Assembly (NCBI RefSeq): GCF_016026235.1
Contig: NZ_CP065613.1
DNA from: Escherichia coli
Lineage (GTDB): Bacteria > Pseudomonadota > Gammaproteobacteria > Enterobacterales > Enterobacteriaceae
DNA: 64,000 bases
Reading direction: 5' to 3' (one strand)
Both the position numbers and the translations under genes were made by a program. The notes beneath the pieces were generated by a model that was given only the letters and a program-made list of their open reading frames with translations, ran no database searches and was not told where the DNA came from. Below, piece after piece: positions 11,115-33,093 of this stretch (position 1 is the first letter of the stretch; each line of letters begins with the position of its first letter).

Positions 11115-11639
11115 ATGGCTTTGACAACCATTTCGCCGCATGATGCACAAGAATTAATCGCACGCGGCGCAAAGTTAATCGATATTCGTGACGCTGATGA
11201 ATATCTTCGTGAACATATTCCTGAAGCAGATCTGGCTCCATTATCCGTGCTGGAACAGTCAGGTCTTCCACCTAAATTACGTCGCGAGCAAATTATATTC
11301 CACTGCCAGGCAGGTAAACGCACCAGTAATAACGCCGATAAATTAGCAGCGATTGCCGCCCCCGCAGAAATATTTTTACTCGAAGATGGGATTGATGGCT
11401 GGAAAAGAGCTGGATTGCCAGTAGCGGTAAATAAATCTCAACCCTTGCCGTTAATGCGCCAGGTGCAGATCGCTGCGGGTGGTTTAATATTAATCGGCGT
11501 TGTACTGGGTTATACCGTAAATAGCGGTTTCTTCTTATTAAGTGGCTTTGTTGGTGCCGGGTTACTGTTTGCAGGAATCAGCGGTTTTTGTGGAATGGCA
11601 AGGTTGTTAGATAAGATGCCGTGGAACCAACGAGCTTGA
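11115..11639 (+). CDS. ygaP: Rhodanese-domain inner-membrane sulfurtransferase
   Basis: 174-aa ORF; rhodanese active-site region (HCQAGKRT) and C-terminal hydrophobic helices. Confidence 0.85.
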
Positions 11640-11685
11640 GAAGCGACGCCGGACGCGCCCTAGCAGCGACATCCGGCCTCAGTAA

Positions 11686-12090
11686 TTAGATCAGGAAATC
11701 GTCGAGAGATTTACCTTCTGCCAGCGCCTGAGCAATTGGCTTCGGTGTACGGCCCTGACCGGTCCAGGTTTTAGTTTCACCGTTAACATCGGTGAATTTA
11801 TATTTCGCCGGACGCGGCTGGCGTTTTTTACCAGCGCGTGGTGCAGCAGCAGAGCTATTACCTAATAACTCTTCCGGGTTAATTCCGTCAGCCTTCATCA
11901 GCTCCAGCCAGGTGCTAATTTTTTCCTGACGCTCAGCCAGTTCACGCTGCTGCTGTTCTTCTTCTTCACGTCTTTCTTTAGTGACAACCCTGAATTTTTC
12001 GAGCATTTCTTCAAGAACGTCAATGGAGAATTCGCGAGCCATCGCACGGAGAGTGCGAATGTTATTTAAACTTTGTAACATTACGGACAT
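11686..12090 (-). CDS. stpA: H-NS paralog StpA (nucleoid protein, RNA chaperone)
   Basis: 134-aa [35 protein letters not shown]..., recognised as StpA. Confidence 0.95.
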
Positions 12091-12757
12091 AATAAAGAAA
12101 ACCTTTTAACGCCAAAACAAAAAAGTATTTCGTCGCGTAGTGTAAGCGATCACTTATTATATTTCCACAAAATTTAATCTATTTACAGTCCTGCGCGAGA
12201 TTATTTCAGCTGTTATTTTCTGAAACTCTCAGAATAATTTCAAGATTATATATTAGCCATTTTGATGAGTAATTTAGATTATTGGTGAACAGAACGGCGC
12301 TCTCTGCTCGCTAATTCCGCAAGCCTGACAAAACCGAAGTGAATAAAAATGCAATATAACAGAATAAAAGAAAACACCCCTCACTGGTGCTTTCTGCTGT
12401 TAATGTACATTTTCTGGCATAAAAAATACTGTAAATGACACGGTCACGACATACACCGAATTCTCTACGCTTATAGCGTTACCTCACCCCCAAACTTTCA
12501 TTAGTGAAATTAAAGGAAAGGTCATATCTAATTGATTTAATTGAAAATAAATCATATCGGCATGTAAAAATCCACAATGTACAAAAAACGAGCCGTTACG
12601 GAATATTTTATCTACAAAAACTGACTAAATAAAAATTTTTCACTAATTGATTAGTCATAGCCAGCGATATACGCTATGCGAAAATGCAGATGGCAATGAG
12701 ATCCACTGTTTTCATCTCCATTAACATCCCATTACGCTTTTATTAAGGAGCATTAGC

Positions 12758-13207
12758 ATGTTCTCACCGCAGTCACGCTTGCGTCATGCAGTTGCAGATA
12801 CGTTCGCGATGGTTGTTTACTGTTCTGTCGTGAACATGTGTATTGAAGTTTTCCTCTCCGGAATGAGCTTCGAACAGTCTTTTTATTCCAGATTGGTAGC
12901 GATTCCGGTGAACATCTTAATTGCATGGCCATACGGTATGTACCGTGATCTGTTTATGCGCGCGGCACGCAAAGTTAGCCCGTCGGGCTGGATAAAAAAT
13001 CTGGCGGATATCCTGGCTTATGTGACGTTCCAGTCACCGGTGTATGTGGCGATCTTGTTAGTGGTGGGCGCAGACTGGCATCAGATTATGGCGGCGGTCA
13101 GTTCAAACATCGTTGTTTCGATGTTGATGGGGGCGGTTTATGGCTACTTCCTCGATTATTGCCGCCGACTGTTTAAAGTCAGCCGTTACCAGCAGGTAAA
13201 AGCCTGA
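12758..13207 (+). CDS. alaE: L-alanine exporter
   Basis: 149-aa hydrophobic ORF; position after the long AT-rich stpA intergenic region. Confidence 0.85.
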
Positions 13208-13243
13208 CTCTTCTTTTCGCGACTGGCATCGCCAGTCGCGTCT

Positions 13244-13588
13244 TTAACTGGCTTCGCCAAATAAACCATTCAAATAACGTTCAAGCGCAACACGCGAACT
13301 AAAGCCATGCGGGATACCGTAATGCTCGTGTCGCTCGCCTGCTAAATAGAGCGGAAATTGCTGGTAATGATCGCAAGTTTTAATATCGGAAGCGGGTTCA
13401 GCCAGTGTCGAACTGCGTTCTTTTAATGTTGGATGAATTACCAGAGCGGTACGTCCCATTCGCGCTTCGCGATTAACATAGACATAATTTTCCCCACGGC
13501 GGTAACCATACGCTTTCTGGGTTACCACATCGACAGTAAAACCGACTTTTTCAAGTACGCGCGCCACCTCGTCTGGTCGTAAATACAT
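13244..13588 (-). CDS. ygaC: Uncharacterized protein YgaC
   Basis: 114-aa ORF; synteny. Confidence 0.8.
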
Positions 13589-13727
13589 ATTTGATCCTCG
13601 TTATTATCAACCGCGGGCCTACCTTACCTGATTGCGCATTCACAACGCTTTCAGAAAAGTCCATAAAGCCGCGATGAACCTCAGTTAAGAAAATTATGGT
13701 CTACACTGAAAATTACATCGAATTCTA

Positions 13728-14069
13728 ATGGGGGATCATATGTTTAACCGACCGAACCGCAACGACGTTGATGATGGCGTGCAGGATATCCAGAATGATG
13801 TCAATCAATTAGCTGACAGCCTCGAATCTGTATTGAAGTCCTGGGGCAGCGACGCCAAAGGGGAAGCTGAAGCCGCACGCAGTAAAGCTCAGGCATTGCT
13901 GAAAGAAACCAGGGCGCGAATGCATGGTCGTACTCGCGTCCAGCAAGCCGCACGCGATGCCGTTGGCTGCGCGGATTCTTTTGTTCGTGAAAGACCCTGG
14001 TGTAGTGTGGGAACTGCTGCTGCGGTAGGTATTTTTATCGGTGCACTGTTAAGCATGCGCAAATCGTAG
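13728..14069 (+). CDS. ygaM: ElaB/YqjD/YgaM-family membrane-anchored protein
   Basis: 113-aa ORF (possible true start at Met5, 13740) with C-terminal transmembrane segment. Confidence 0.8.
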   Translation: MGDHMFNRPNRNDVDDGVQDIQNDVNQLADSLESVLKSWGSDAKGEAEAARSKAQALLKETRARMHGRTRVQQAARDAVGCADSFVRERPWCSVGTAAAVGIFIGALLSMRKS

Positions 14070-21719: not shown

Positions 21720-21830
21720 TTTTTATTCGGGCGGATAAGGCGTTTTCGCCGCATCCGCCGCTCTGTACACAATGCCTGATGCGACGCTGGCGCGTCTTAT
21801 CATGCCTACAAACCACACCGCACATTTCAA
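21720..21830. repeat. REP/BIME element downstream of proX
   Basis: gcggataaggcg...cgccgcatccgcc and gcctgatgcgacgctggcgcgtcttatcatgcctac palindromic units. Confidence 0.8.
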
Positions 21831-21896
21831 CTGATCTTACCCAGCAATAGTGGACACGCGGCTAAGTGAGTAAACTCTCAGTCAGAGGTGACTCAC

Positions 21897-22196
21897 ATGA
21901 CAAAAACAGTATCAACCAGTAAAAAACCCCGTAAACAGCATTCGCCTGAATTTCGCAGTGAAGCCCTGAAGCTTGCTGAACGCATCGGTGTTACTGCCGC
22001 AGCCCGTGAACTCAGCCTGTATGAATCACAGCTCTACAACTGGCGCAGTAAACAGCAAAATCAGCAGACGTCTTCTGAACGTGAACTGGAGATGTCTACC
22101 GAGATTGCACGTCTCAAACGCCAGCTGGCAGAACGGGATGAAGAGCTGGCTATCCTCCAAAAGGCCGCGACATACTTCGCGAAGCGCCTGAAATGA
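21897..22196 (+). CDS. insE: IS3 OrfA (InsE), HTH DNA-binding transposase N-terminal part
   Basis: 99-aa [32 protein letters not shown]... Confidence 0.9.
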
Positions 22197-23059
22197 AGTA
22201 TGTCTTTATTGAAAAACATCAGGCTGAGTTCAGCATCAAAGCAATGTGCCGCGTGCTCCGGGTGGCCCGCAGCGGCTGGTATACGTGGTGTCAGCGGCGG
22301 ACAAGGATAAGCACGCGTCAGCAGTTCCGCCAACACTGCGACAGCGTTGTCCTCGCGGCTTTTACCCGGTCAAAACAGCGTTACGGTGCCCCACGCCTGA
22401 CGGATGAACTGCGTGCTCAGGGTTACCCCTTTAACGTAAAAACCGTGGCGGCAAGCCTGCGCCGTCAGGGACTGAGGGCAAAGGCCTCCCGGAAGTTCAG
22501 CCCGGTCAGCTACCGCGCACACGGCCTGCCTGTGTCAGAAAATCTGTTGGAGCAGGATTTTTACGCCAGTGGCCCGAACCAGAAGTGGGCAGGAGACATC
22601 ACGTACTTACGTACAGATGAAGGCTGGCTGTATCTGGCAGTGGTCATTGACCTGTGGTCACGTGCCGTTATTGGCTGGTCAATGTCGCCACGCATGACGG
22701 CGCAACTGGCCTGCGATGCCCTGCAGATGGCGCTGTGGCGGCGTAAGAGGCCCCGGAACGTTATCGTTCACACGGACCGTGGAGGCCAGTACTGTTCAGC
22801 AGATTATCAGGCGCAACTGAAGCGGCATAATCTGCGTGGAAGTATGAGCGCAAAAGGTTGCTGCTACGATAATGCCTGCGTGGAAAGCTTCTTTCATTCG
22901 CTGAAAGTGGAATGTATCCATGGAGAACACTTTATCAGCTGGGAAATAATGCGGGCAACGGTGTTTAATTATATCGAATGTGATTACAATCGGTGGCGGC
23001 GGCACAGTTGGTGTGGCGGCCTCAGTCCGGAACAATTTGAAAACCAGAACCTCGCTTAG
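22193..23059 (+). CDS. insF: IS3 OrfB (InsF), DDE transposase catalytic domain
   Basis: 288-aa ORF in the -1 frame relative to OrfA, overlapping it by 4 bp, as expected for a programmed -1 frameshift OrfAB fusion. Confidence 0.9.
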
Positions 23060-23171
23060 GCCTGTGTCCATATTACGTGGGTAGGATCACAACAAGCTAT
23101 CTTTCGCCCCCATTCATAAACATCCGCTATTATTGATTTCCAGCTTAATCATCACCTGATAAACAAAAATA

Positions 23172-29663: not shown

Positions 29664-29735
29664 GAAAGACGCGCATTTGTTATCATCATCCCTGAATTCA
29701 GAGATGAAATTTTGGCCACTCACGAGTGGCCTTTT
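29664..29735 (+). ncRNA. micA: MicA (SraD) Hfq-dependent small RNA
   Basis: gaaagacgcgcatttgttatcatcatccctgaattcagagatgaaattttggccactcacgagtggccttttt matches the MicA sequence as I recall it, including its terminator hairpin; lies between luxS and gshA. Confidence 0.9.
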
Positions 29736-31373: not shown

Positions 31374-31802
31374 TTAGTGCCACCACATCATGCCCTGAAC
31401 GGTCGCTGCTGCAACTGCAACATAGCGTAACGCTTTACCAAGGCACAAAAAAAAGATTACCGGCCCCCAGGAGATGCGCATCCATCCCGCTAACAGACAC
31501 AGTAAATCGCCAACCACGGGCATCCAGCTTAATAATAGCGTGACTGCACCATAGCGTTTCAGCCAGCCGGTAGCTTTCTCTTGCCAGCGCGATGTTTTAC
31601 GCAATGGAAAGAAACGCCCAAGGATAACGTTAGTTAACCCTCCAAGGCTATTACCCATTGTTGCTGTTAAAACTAAAACCCAGGGATGACTGATCCCGGA
31701 AAGCAACATTGCCACCAGCACGACTTCGGAGTTGCCGGGTAATAGTGTAGCGCTGAGAAAACTACTGGCAAACAACGAGAAAAGCGATAACGCTTCACTC
31801 AC
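31374..31802 (-). CDS. yqaA: DedA-family inner membrane protein
   Basis: 142-aa hydrophobic ORF; synteny after gshA. Confidence 0.85.
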   Translation of the reverse strand: MSEALSLFSLFASSFLSATLLPGNSEVVLVAMLLSGISHPWVLVLTATMGNSLGGLTNVILGRFFPLRKTSRWQEKATGWLKRYGAVTLLLSWMPVVGDLLCLLAGWMRISWGPVIFFLCLGKALRYVAVAAATVQGMMWWH

Positions 31803-32183
31803 AGCAAGCGAACATCCACAGCGTCCATGCCTGCTGCACGGGCCGCCTGAATACCGAAATCGGCATCTTCAAAGACCACACACTGCGTCGGTTGCACGCC
31901 CATACGCTGCGCGCACAACAAAAATGTGTCTGGCGCGGGTTTATGGTGTTTGACGTGATCAGCAGCGACGACGGCGTCAAAATAACGGCGTAATCCCAGG
32001 TGCGCCAGCAATGCCTCAGCGATGGCGCTTTCACTCCCCGTTCCTACCGCCATTGGCCGACGTCCATGCCAACTGAAGACCGTAGTGCCCTAATACTTCG
32101 CGCCACGCTTTACGGTGCGTAGGCTCCGTATCCAGGATTGTGCCATCCATATCAAAAATTAAACCTGCATAACGCTCGTACAT
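31799..32183 (-). pseudogene. yqaB: HAD-family sugar phosphatase YqaB disrupted by an internal deletion with frameshift
   Basis: Hand translation: ATG at 32183 gives MYERYAGLIFDMDGTILDTEPTHRKAWREVLGHYGLQ (HAD motif I) then out-of-frame LAWTSANGGRNGE and stop at 32031-32033; the C-terminal 84-aa frame (32053..31799, MAVGTGSES...HKPAPD...FEDADFG, HAD motifs II-IV) is in a different frame; the cap-domain region between them is absent. Confidence 0.8.
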
Positions 32184-32465
32184 GGTCTTCTCGCAAGTCG
32201 AAAAATATGACGCTACTTTAGCGTAATTGCTTGATTTTGTCGCTGATGGAGAAGGAGAAGAAAATTCAGGAAATGGATAAAGTAGTTATTTAGAAATGAG
32301 ATATTTTTGAAGGAAATTTTTTGGAGAATATGGTGCATCTGGGAGGATTACTCGCCTTGCGGCTCGCCCTTCGGGCCGTTGCTAAAGCAACGTTATCCTC
32401 CCTGGTGCCTGCAGTTAATACCCCTACCTCTTCGATATCTTCATTGCTGAAGATTTCGGAGAATA

Positions 32466-32542
32466 TGGTGCATCCGGGAGGATTCGAACCTCCGACCGCT
32501 CGGTTCGTAGCCGAGTACTCTATCCAGCTGAGCTACGGATGC
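32466..32542 (-). tRNA. tRNA-Arg (anticodon ACG)
   Basis: Reverse complement GCATCCGTAGCTCAGCTGGATAGAGTACTCGGCTACGAACCGAGCGGTCGGAGGTTCGAATCCTCCCGGATGCACCA. Confidence 0.95.
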
Positions 32543-32740
32543 ATCGGGAAAATTTATTTTACTGCTGATATTGATATCGCTACTAAAGCCATATCAAGTA
32601 AGAGATGGTGCATCCGAGAGGATTACTCGCCTTGCGGCTCGCCCTTCGGGCCGTTGCTGGCGCAACGTTATCCTCCCTGGTGCCTGCGGTTAATTCCGCT
32701 ACCTCTTCGATATCTTCATTGCTGAAGATTTCGGAGAATA

Positions 32741-32817
32741 TGGTGCATCCGGGAGGATTCGAACCTCCGACCGCTCGGTTCGTAGCCGAGTACTCTATCC
32801 AGCTGAGCTACGGATGC
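32741..32817 (-). tRNA. tRNA-Arg (anticodon ACG)
   Basis: Identical 77-nt tRNA-Arg sequence. Confidence 0.95.
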
Positions 32818-33016
32818 ATCGGGAAACTTACTTTACTGCAGATTTTTTGATACCGCTACTAAAGCCGTATCAAGTAAGAGATGGTGCATCCGGGAGGATT
32901 ACTCGCCTTGCGGCTCGCCCTTCGGGCCGTTGCTAAAGCAACGTTATCCTCCCTAGTGCCTACGGTTAGTACCGCCACCTCTTCCATACCTTCATCGCTG
33001 AAAGTTACGGAGAATA

Positions 33017-33093
33017 TGGTGCATCCGGGAGGATTCGAACCTCCGACCGCTCGGTTCGTAGCCGAGTACTCTATCCAGCTGAGCTACGGATGC
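33017..33093 (-). tRNA. tRNA-Arg (anticodon ACG)
   Basis: Identical 77-nt tRNA-Arg sequence. Confidence 0.95.

Follow-up and report, generated by a model that had tools for sequence, protein, structure and literature searches.

An intergenic region without annotated features

The locus between stpA and alaE of Escherichia coli raises the question whether its unusually long intergenic interval harbours a gene of its own, for a small RNA or a small protein, or serves solely to control the two flanking genes. In the 64-kb stretch of E. coli DNA analysed here (the window), this gap extends from position 12091 to 12757 (667 bp) and is bordered by two divergently transcribed genes, both located by their open reading frames and by the annotation in matching E. 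coli genomes:

11686..12090, minus strand: stpA coding sequence (134 amino acids), left flank
12758..13207, plus strand: alaE coding sequence (149 amino acids, L-alanine exporter), right flank

The product of stpA is a paralogue of H-NS. The coordinates and gene names given by the original prediction, which described an AT-rich interval of 667 bp, were correct, with a GC content of 0.34 for the gap vs 0.525 for the whole window. Its description as unusually long also held: the gap is the longest one in the window without any feature, the median being 105 bp, and the three other large gaps contain an IS3-family element, a tRNA cluster or REP arrays. Gap lengths were compared after remapping of the genes by BLAST, the register of genome AR_0069 being valid only for about 7.8–18 kb of the window. 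The equivalent gap of strain K-12 measures 668 bp (NC_000913.3, 2798496–2799163) and carries no annotation.

The gap had further been described as rich in A/T tracts resembling curved DNA. Runs of at least four A/T nucleotides were indeed enriched, with 23 runs vs 15.3 ± 2.7 in dinucleotide-preserving shuffles, of which 0.4% reached 23. The curvature part of this description is weakly supported: local phasing of the tracts was found near 12381–12450 and 12561–12630, at a strength matched by 3% of dinucleotide shuffles, and a periodicity of AA/TT of 10–11 bp over the whole gap was not found. The statement that no open reading frame (ORF) exceeds 60 amino acids is true, as the longest ORF with a start codon comprises 42 amino acids and the longest stop-free stretch 55. 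Shuffles of the same sequence gave longest stop-free stretches of 63 amino acids on average, i.e. above the observed value, so that the shortness of the ORFs is uninformative. The gap sequence is single-copy in each genome, and a repeat search gave short repeats that are probably due to chance. One exception among these is the motif CTAATTGATT, which occurs twice in the gap, at 12528 and 12643, 115 bp apart.

Conservation of the gap in Enterobacteriaceae

The locus was compared across 59–80 species of Enterobacteriaceae, depending on the analysis, and promoter columns were examined in alignments of 17 genera. A long AT-rich gap of 475–789 bp was present in all 59 species loci having both genes, with the divergent gene arrangement kept throughout and a GC content of 0.31–0.43 vs 0.47–0.57 in the surrounding locus. 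Because it was found in each of these loci, the gap is a real and conserved feature and no chance property of one strain. Cross-species alignment limited the conserved blocks to 12091–12170 and 12525–12757, next to the two genes. The DNA between them is described by a single feature:

12191..12559, no strand: fast-evolving AT-rich spacer of about 370 bp, length and composition kept, sequence not

When E. coli was compared with E. albertii or the cryptic clades, this spacer showed 52–56% identity, below the 75–78% found in the same comparison at four-fold degenerate sites of alaE. Sequence conservation of the middle region across genera was low, and its median GC content in 59 species was 0.356. 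This pattern suggests that the spacer is maintained for composition and length rather than for sequence.

Alternatively, the gap might owe its length to the degraded remains of a gene or mobile element that was lost, the length itself having no function. Such a remnant would be consistent with a middle part that evolves faster than neighbouring synonymous sites, and insertions do occur in the gap, namely IS1 in strain QL57EC and a GC-rich insert in Citrobacter amalonaticus. However, a remnant shared as an AT-rich gap of 475–789 bp by 59 of 59 species with both genes would have to be older than the family, and shrinkage would be expected; moreover, the gap sequence, present once per genome, contains no notable repeats. 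We therefore regard this explanation as highly improbable.

Conserved putative promoters of stpA and alaE

The conserved blocks at both ends of the gap contain putative promoter elements, which were deduced mainly from the alignments of 17 genera. On the stpA side the following elements were assigned:

12091..12132, minus strand: predicted stpA 5′ untranslated region (UTR), about 42 nt, downstream of the conserved -10 element, with an inferred start site
12139..12167, minus strand: predicted stpA core promoter, -35 TGGAAA (12162–12167), 17-bp spacer, -10 TACACT (12139–12144), from the 17-genus alignment
12215..12243, minus strand: promoter-like TTGAAA-17-GAAAAT, possible distal stpA promoter specific for E. 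coli, from a consensus scan of the window, K-12 and S88

The predicted stpA core promoter has the form TGGAAA-17-TAnnnT across 17 genera, and the T, A and final T of the -10 element as well as one G of the -35 element are invariant. Its -10 element lies about 48 bp before the ATG, and a perfect TATAAT inside the spacer (12156–12161) may provide an alternative -10 element in Escherichia, Salmonella and C. koseri. The sequence of the putative 5′ UTR showed 91–100% identity within Escherichia and partial conservation across genera; folding gave no significant RNA structure of this leader (z +0.52). In E. albertii and the cryptic clades, the sequence of the possible distal promoter has diverged, and the number of consensus promoter-like sites in the gap was no higher than expected from shuffles.

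On the alaE side the elements were:

12560..12646, no strand: AT-rich block conserved upstream of the alaE promoter, identity 90–100% across 59 species
12647..12675, plus strand: predicted alaE core promoter, -35 TTGATT (12647–12652), 17-bp spacer, -10 TACGCT (12670–12675), from the 17-genus alignment
12682..12757, plus strand: predicted alaE 5′ UTR, about 76 nt, placed from the conserved -10 element, with Shine-Dalgarno sequence AAGGAG at 12745–12750

Invariant columns of the putative alaE promoter in 17 genera comprise the TTG of the -35 element and T, A, C and T of the -10 element, the latter being located about 82 bp before the ATG. A composite motif AAATAAARAW..CTAnTTGnnn-17-TAnnCT was recognised in 68 of the 79 species loci, and its spacer invariably measured 17 bp. 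Within the upstream block, in which A/T tracts are locally phased, AATAAAAAT (12629–12636) is invariant and GGAATATTTTATCTACAAAAA with its equivalents nearly so; these conserved bases may represent Lrp sites and/or an UP element. The AGGAG of the Shine-Dalgarno sequence is invariant in the 17-genus alignment, and folding of the alaE leader revealed no significant RNA structure and no attenuator structure (z -1.46).

The two predicted core promoters are about 480–500 bp apart. Indirect published evidence exists for both. SELEX-chip assigned constitutive promoters in both directions to the stpA–alaE spacer, for which an H-NS site is also listed (PMC3946193), in line with the original prediction of divergent stpA and alaE promoters in the gap, and the same study predicted an alternative alaE promoter near 12505–12533 (PMC3946193). 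A sigma-S RNA polymerase ChIP-seq peak was assigned to alaE (PMC4447067); this low-resolution peak corresponds to about 12672–12821 of the window after the coordinate conversion made here. A MazF cleavage site was reported 36 nt before the start codon of ygaW (PMC5001579), and the putative alaE 5′ UTR contains an ACA at 12724–12726. The assignment of both promoters and UTRs, and of the exact start sites of stpA and alaE in particular, is an inference from phylogenetic footprinting and this one ChIP peak. The Cappable-seq files covered list nothing at these coordinates.

Binding of Lrp, H-NS and ArgR

The proposed binding of Lrp and H-NS in the gap is supported by published work. For Lrp, ChIP revealed a double peak at the locus, with one peak at the alaE promoter and the second about 1 kb away; the activity of a PalaE-lacZ fusion depends on Lrp and leucine; Lrp activates stpA, and deletion of the site in ygaP reduced this activation more than 5-fold; atomic force microscopy (AFM) showed that Lrp bridges a DNA fragment of the stpA/alaE locus and that leucine abolishes bridging (all PMC10127797). 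Induction of alaE by Lrp plus L-alanine or L-leucine is stated in PMC6801825 with reference to Ihara 2017. Expression of stpA was reported to be Lrp-dependent and silenced by H-NS (PMC4668568), which together with the published H-NS site (PMC3946193) supports the involvement of H-NS.

Consensus scans for Lrp and H-NS did not single out the gap. The Lrp consensus YAGHAWATTWTDCTR matched at three sites in the gap, each with 3 mismatches, and at 80 sites in the window vs 69 ± 10 in shuffles; the alaE upstream block thus matches this consensus weakly. A close match to the high-affinity H-NS motif TCGATAAATT was not found inside the gap, which contains one site with 2 mismatches at 12605–12614; the nearest site with 1 mismatch lies within stpA (11993–12002). 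The gap shows the AT-richness and A-tracts expected of DNA bound by H-NS.

A third regulator is suggested by the following element:

12338..12355, plus strand: near-consensus ARG box (ArgR half-operator) AGTGAATAAAAATGCAAT, 1 mismatch to WNTGAATWWWWATTCANW

This is the only such site in 64 kb, with 0.03 expected. It has a mid-spacer position upstream of both putative starts, at a distance of about 330 bp from that of alaE and about 210 bp from that of stpA. Binding of ArgR upstream of ygaW (= alaE) was previously demonstrated by ChIP-exo and EMSA (PMC4381063).

Comparison with known systems classified the locus among the Lrp multi-site bridging promoters such as ilvIH, dadAX and oppA, of which it is itself a published example. 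It shares with them promoter occupancy plus a second peak about 1 kb away, leucine-responsive binding, opposite effects on the two genes, one being activated and the other repressed, and a conserved AT-rich upstream block; nothing essential differs, the individual Lrp sites being putative. With DNA silenced by H-NS/StpA, such as the proV regulatory region in the same window, the gap has in common its AT-richness, enrichment in tracts, some local phasing, a published H-NS site and the silencing of stpA by H-NS. Unlike acquired DNA silenced by H-NS, it belongs to the core genome, keeps its position across the family and lacks a close match to TCGATAAATT. The single-mismatch ARG box and the ArgR binding published in vivo and in vitro resemble ArgR operators with their paired boxes, whereas in the gap the partner box at 12359–12376, 3 bp downstream, is poor, with 5 mismatches, and the site does not lie over a promoter.

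Search for a small RNA

The gap had also been proposed as a candidate location for an unannotated small RNA (sRNA), for which we found no support. A search of 11000–14000 up to E = 10, and of the whole window at the gathering threshold, gave no credible Rfam match in the gap. Supplementary Term-seq data of K-12 from a few conditions, in which condition-specific or H-NS-silenced transcripts could escape detection, revealed no 3′ end between 2798500 and 2799099. No feature is annotated in the region in K-12 or among the approximately 55 E. coli records listed out of 5,419 genomes with the region. A terminator scan identified one element of interest:

12369..12395, minus strand: terminator-like hairpin with U-rich tail

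The 71-nt stretch around it (12350–12420, minus strand) has a predicted folding energy of -17.8 kcal/mol (z -2.2). The hairpin is weakened or removed by uncompensated substitutions in K-12, O157, S88, AB24 and ETEC1701, and E. albertii and the cryptic clades lack it altogether; S88 has no terminator-like site in the gap, K-12 has a different one, and no Term-seq 3′ end of K-12 maps to the position of the hairpin. The hairpin is strain-specific and probably fortuitous, and its lack of conservation within E. coli is a further argument against the proposed sRNA.

An sRNA designated Ssr49 was predicted computationally at this locus on the minus strand in Shigella flexneri 301 and was not among the candidates validated by RT-PCR (PMC4782007). 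If real, this RNA of about 285 nt would start near the alaE promoter, run toward stpA and end at the hairpin (12395–12369). Spurious promoters are frequent in AT-rich DNA bound by H-NS, and the hairpin with its U-rich tail, folding energy and z value fits such a transcript. A predictor combining promoters and terminators chose the same region and the stpA strand in S. flexneri 301 (PMC4782007). However, Ssr49 carries no RT-PCR validation flag (PMC4782007), the promoter scan gave no convincing minus-strand promoter at a suitable distance, and the putative RNA body would fall into the least conserved DNA of the gap. Moreover, the substitutions in the hairpin remain uncompensated in K-12, O157, B2 strains and ETEC, the structure is lost in E. 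albertii and the cryptic clades, and the Term-seq interval and the Rfam searches contributed zero 3′ ends and zero matches. Such an sRNA is therefore very unlikely. The gap resembles genes of Hfq-type sRNAs, exemplified by MicA in the same window (29664–29735), in being long and intergenic and in having one terminator-like hairpin; unlike these genes, it lacks a conserved pair of promoter and terminator, a conserved sequence or structure, an Rfam family and a mapped 3′ end. NsrP is described as an sRNA of meningitis E. coli that depends on Lrp and leucine (PMC11904087); phrase searches found stpA nowhere in this text and alaE once, not beside “and” or “upstream of”, probably in the title of a reference (PMC11904087).

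Small open reading frames

The suggestion of an unannotated small protein did not withstand comparison within the genus, as each of the 14 ORFs of at least 15 amino acids in the gap is broken in at least one Escherichia lineage. Two of these ORFs are the following:

12504..12632, plus strand: 42-aa ORF with GTG start, overlapping the conserved alaE upstream DNA block
12684..12746, plus strand: 20-aa upstream ORF (uORF), its TAA overlapping the alaE Shine-Dalgarno sequence AAGGAG

The exact sequence of the 42-aa ORF belongs to a protein cluster of 10, nine members of which are named ‘hypothetical’ or ‘uncharacterized’, and the ORF, the only one in the gap recovered by exact-sequence look-up, was called ‘hypothetical protein’ in several old GenBank records of E. 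coli and Shigella. ETEC1701 has a stop codon inside the ORF, and E. albertii and the cryptic clades have lost its start codon and contain stops as well. It is probably spurious.

These old records would favour the 42-aa ORF as a real small protein. Another ORF that might be one is a 32-aa hydrophobic ORF on the minus strand (12279–12377), which six E. coli strains carry without interruption. Its N-terminal half is hydrophobic, and it might specify a peptide resembling type I toxins, overlapped by an antisense RNA. Against the 42-aa ORF stand its disruption in ETEC1701, E. albertii, Escherichia sp. MOD1-EC7003 and three of three cryptic-clade genomes and its absence from the annotation of K-12 and the RefSeq records examined. 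The 32-aa ORF is broken in E. albertii, MOD1-EC7003 and two of three cryptic-clade genomes, is missing from the protein collection and lacks a properly spaced Shine-Dalgarno sequence. Both have accumulated many amino acid changes among E. coli strains, and the stop-free stretches of the gap are shorter than those of shuffles. That either of them encodes a functional protein seems exceedingly improbable.

The 20-aa uORF deserves separate consideration. Its reading frame is uninterrupted in each of the six E. coli strains compared, in one Escherichia sp. and in E. albertii, where about half of its residues are different. Three cryptic-clade species have an in-frame stop, and the uORF is missing in other genera. 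A Shine-Dalgarno sequence upstream of it was not found, nor was its exact sequence in a collection of 15 billion proteins. Its function is doubtful.

Translation of this uORF, possibly in a leaderless or near-leaderless manner, would modulate translation of alaE. Besides its integrity in six of six E. coli strains, E. albertii and one more Escherichia species, its TAA overlaps the AAGGAG of alaE, its ATG follows the putative -10 element by 9 nt and would thus lie at or next to the 5′ end of the transcript, and a deletion found in the cryptic clades removes 6 nt and thereby leaves the frame unchanged. It is, however, broken or missing in relatives whose promoter and Shine-Dalgarno sequence stay conserved, and the replacement of about half of the residues in E. 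albertii gives no hint of purifying selection. In addition, it lacks a Shine-Dalgarno sequence, its exact sequence was never called as a protein, and Lrp already accounts for the induction of alaE. We consider translation with such an effect very unlikely. Like leader peptides of amino-acid-responsive operons, the uORF ends at the ribosome-binding site of an exporter gene; unlike these, it has no run of regulatory codons, attenuator or Shine-Dalgarno sequence, and its conservation is restricted to E. coli, E. albertii and one Escherichia sp.

Taking these two possibilities together, there is a slim chance that the gap contains either a recently acquired leaderless or near-leaderless uORF, present in E. 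coli and its closest relatives, or an H-NS-silenced, lineage-specific transcript similar to Ssr49 that runs on the minus strand from the alaE upstream block. If the former were true, termination of the uORF on the ribosome-binding site of alaE would supplement the control of alanine export by Lrp with regulation at the level of translation.

A probable shared control region for stpA and alaE

The gap is very probably the shared control region of the divergent genes stpA and alaE, without a gene of its own. This conclusion is based on the published evidence for Lrp, H-NS, ArgR and sigma-S, on the conserved promoter blocks and on the missing signals of a gene. The control region is already known from published work, almost as a textbook case of bridging by Lrp and silencing by H-NS, and no new kind of element is implied.

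In this view, stpA and alaE would each use their own conserved core promoter of the sigma-70/sigma-S type close to the coding sequence, and regulators that are nucleoid-associated or respond to amino acids would assemble on the DNA between the promoters. As published experiments show, Lrp bound at the alaE/stpA promoter region forms a bridge with another Lrp site located in ygaP. When leucine is missing, bound Lrp activates stpA and exerts a slight repression on alaE; in the presence of leucine or alanine, bridging is lost, a single Lrp complex stays in place and alaE is activated strongly. H-NS, and presumably also StpA, occupies the AT-rich DNA and silences stpA, and ArgR binds upstream of alaE, probably at the ARG box in mid-spacer.

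The locus illustrates that, in a well-studied genome, a gap of such unusual length and AT-richness can be explained completely by promoters and protein-binding DNA. Because these account for the gap, the suggestion of an sRNA or a small protein can be set aside barring new transcript data. The predictions at base level, comprising both core promoters, the upstream block and the ARG box, can be used for dissecting the control by Lrp, H-NS and ArgR. Furthermore, the spacer, in which sequence turnover is faster than at nearby synonymous sites, may offer a handy test case for selection on DNA composition.

Position and composition of the stpA-alaE gap

According to ORF and gene annotation, the H-NS paralogue gene stpA and the L-alanine exporter gene alaE (formerly ygaW) are arranged divergently:

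11686-12090, minus strand: stpA
12758-13207, plus strand: alaE

As stpA reaches up to 12090 and alaE starts at 12758, the gap covers exactly 12091-12757 (667 bp); its GC content of 0.34, compared to 0.525 for the window, confirmed the original prediction of a long AT-rich interval. Complete E. coli genomes matching the surrounding 1.7 kb number 5,420 out of 5,426, and the K-12 MG1655 counterpart (668 bp, NC_000913.3 2798496-2799163, 97.2% identity) is without any annotated feature. The gap contains 23 A/T runs of at least 4 nt versus 15.3 ± 2.7 in dinucleotide-preserving shuffles. Support for the proposed curved-DNA-like character was weak: AA/TT helical phasing was absent over the gap as a whole and modest locally (~12381-12450 and ~12561-12630), with a strength matched by 3% of shuffles. 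The gap indeed lacks an ORF above 60 aa, which is uninformative because open stretches were longer in the shuffles.

With genes remapped onto the window, the gap is the longest feature-free interval (median gap 105 bp); the remaining large gaps carry an IS3-family element, a tRNA-Arg/Ser cluster or REP arrays. The gabT-gabP gap (7342-7847, 506 bp, 61% GC; only 237 bp in the reference strain AR_0069) holds three tandem REP/BIME units scoring as Rfam naRNA4 (7398-7474, 7487-7564 and 7577-7654). Downstream of proX (21720-23171), a naRNA4/REP match (21729-21806) is followed by an IS3-family insertion (21888-23059) with transposase ORFs of 102 aa and 288 aa, ahead of an MFS transporter gene. The sRNA MicA, expected for E. 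coli, was located in the luxS-gshA interval (29664-29735, plus strand, Rfam 83.9 bits). Compared to AR_0069, the window has three instead of four tRNA-Arg copies at 32469-33093 and lacks, at 57060-57330, a toxin gene of the higB family, an HTH antitoxin gene and a hypothetical gene that AR_0069 has between ascB and hycI. In the single best BLAST segment, the AR_0069 query for yqaB (31799-32365) aligned only up to nt 276 of its 567 nt, possibly owing to an indel or to local divergence in yqaB of the window.

Conserved putative promoters at both ends of the gap

An AlaE scan yielded 80 species loci, and in 59 of these stpA is divergent from alaE. Their gaps measure 475-789 bp (median 557), with a GC content of 0.31-0.43 versus 0.47-0.57 in the surrounding 6.4 kb. 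Conserved sequence is limited to two zones, 12091-12170 on the stpA side and 12525-12757 on the alaE side; the latter includes an AT-rich block upstream of alaE conserved between genera, and identity between genera reaches 90-100% at 12594-12653.

In the 17-genus alignment, invariant columns on the alaE side are AATAAAAAT (12629-12636), CTAnTTG (12643-12649) and A-TA..CTA (12669-12676). The putative alaE core promoter consists of the -35 element TTGATT (12647-12652), a 17-bp spacer and the -10 element TACGCT (12670-12675). The composite AAATAAARAW..CTAnTTGnnn-17-TAnnCT was present in 68 of 79 species loci, with a 17-bp spacer in every case and a median distance of 82 nt from the -10 element to the ATG. 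The position of the -10 element would place the alaE start near 12682, with a leader of ~76 nt.

The K-12 genome versions are offset by 1978 bp, the value used for the following conversion. A ChIP-seq peak of sigma-S RNA polymerase assigned to alaE (2797100-2797249, old K-12 coordinates; PMC4447067) corresponds to ~12672-12821 in the window. MazF cleaves the ygaW leader 36 nt 5' of the start codon (PMC5001579), and the alaE leader contains ACA at 12724-12726. The predicted start and leader agree with both observations.

On the stpA side, the invariant positions across the 17 genera fall in TGGAAA (12162-12167) and TACACT (12139-12144), which, separated by 17 bp, probably represent the stpA core promoter; judged from sequence, transcription would start near 12132. 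A perfect TATAAT (12156-12161) provides an alternative -10 element in Escherichia, Salmonella and C. koseri, and TTGAAA-17-GAAAAT (12215-12243) is specific to E. coli.

Two copies of the motif CTAATTGATT are separated by 115 bp (12528-12537 and 12643-12652), and the putative alaE -35 element lies within the second copy. The first copy, ATTGATTTA, is likewise conserved across genera and coincides with the published predicted promoter GTGAAA-17-TCTAAT. It could mark a second promoter, or the motif could be a site of protein binding present in duplicate.

Insertions were seen at two loci. In Citrobacter amalonaticus, a GC-rich insertion of ~190 bp, perhaps a small repetitive or mobile element, lies ~190 bp upstream of alaE, between the conserved promoter and the Shine-Dalgarno sequence, and extends the alaE leader to ~210 nt. 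The swine isolate E. coli QL57EC carries IS1X2 in the gap (2843-3610 of the compared locus L086); there the gap is reduced to the 341 bp nearest stpA, and alaE lacks its N-terminal part.

Middle of the gap and protein binding

The middle of the gap (12191-12559) is 92-99% identical between E. coli strains. Against E. albertii and three cryptic-clade Escherichia genomes, identity is 52-56% compared to 75-78% at four-fold degenerate sites of alaE, indicating a turnover at least as fast as that of neutral sites. Despite this turnover, the middle is long and AT-rich in all 59 species. The low identity may stem from saturation of the alignment, from replacement of the allele, or from relaxed constraint combined with AT-biased mutation.

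The ARG box AGTGAATAAAAATGCAAT (12338-12355) has one mismatch to the consensus and is unique in the 64 kb (0.03 expected); its partner box is poor. It fits the binding of ArgR upstream of ygaW, found by ChIP-exo and confirmed by EMSA (PMC4381063).

ChIP-seq revealed a double Lrp peak, one in the gap and the other inside ygaP; once the ygaP site was removed, activation of stpA by Lrp dropped by a factor of more than 5 (PMC10127797). In minimal medium, Lrp had a slight repressive effect on a PalaE-lacZ fusion, which it activated strongly when Leu/Ile/Val were present, and in AFM purified Lrp bridged the stpA-alaE fragment, which was abolished by leucine (PMC10127797). Induction of alaE by L-alanine and L-leucine via Lrp is stated in PMC6801825, citing Ihara 2017. 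In minimal medium, stpA expression depends on Lrp, and H-NS silences the gene (PMC4668568). Genomic SELEX listed an H-NS site for the spacer, together with promoters for either direction (PMC3946193).

Candidate small RNA and small protein genes

A small RNA or small protein had also been proposed for the gap. No Rfam match was found in it, and RNA folding of the predicted alaE and stpA leaders showed no significant structure. The single terminator-like hairpin (12395-12369, minus strand; -17.8 kcal/mol and z -2.2 for the surrounding 71 nt) carries uncompensated changes in K-12, O157, S88, AB24 and ETEC1701 and is lost in E. albertii and the cryptic clades. No terminator-like site was found in the S88 gap; the K-12 gap has another, weak one. 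The K-12 Term-seq tables of Adams et al. contain no 3' end at 2798500-2799099, the nearest being 2798048, 2798243 and then 2800533. Ssr49, a 285-nt promoter-plus-terminator prediction on the stpA strand of this gap in Shigella flexneri, is not in the RT-PCR-confirmed set (PMC4782007). The Lrp- and leucine-dependent sRNA NsrP of neonatal-meningitis E. coli is described with the same regulatory logic as alaE, and phrase search of that paper's text returned no mention of stpA (PMC11904087).

All 14 gap ORFs of at least 15 aa were traced in ten further Escherichia sequences, and none was intact throughout. The TAA stop of a 20-aa ORF (12684-12746) overlaps the alaE Shine-Dalgarno sequence. This ORF is unbroken in E. 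coli and in one further species as well as in E. albertii, where about half of its residues are changed; in the cryptic clades it is interrupted by an in-frame stop. It was not found in other genera, although promoter and Shine-Dalgarno sequence are kept there. ATG-started peptides of the 'MQRYTLY' type in other genera were rejected as mere translation of conserved promoter DNA. A single gap ORF (42 aa, 12504-12632) has been deposited, under the name 'hypothetical protein' in old records; it shares DNA with the conserved upstream block, and several lineages carry it in broken form.

Overall, an RNA or peptide gene hidden in the gap is unsupported and unlikely. The regulatory part of the original prediction proved right, as published Lrp, H-NS and promoter data are joined by conserved promoters. 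The gap is very probably a protein-bound control region common to stpA and alaE; new here are the base-level placement of both conserved promoters, the AT-rich upstream block and the ARG box, and a spacer conserved in composition rather than in sequence.
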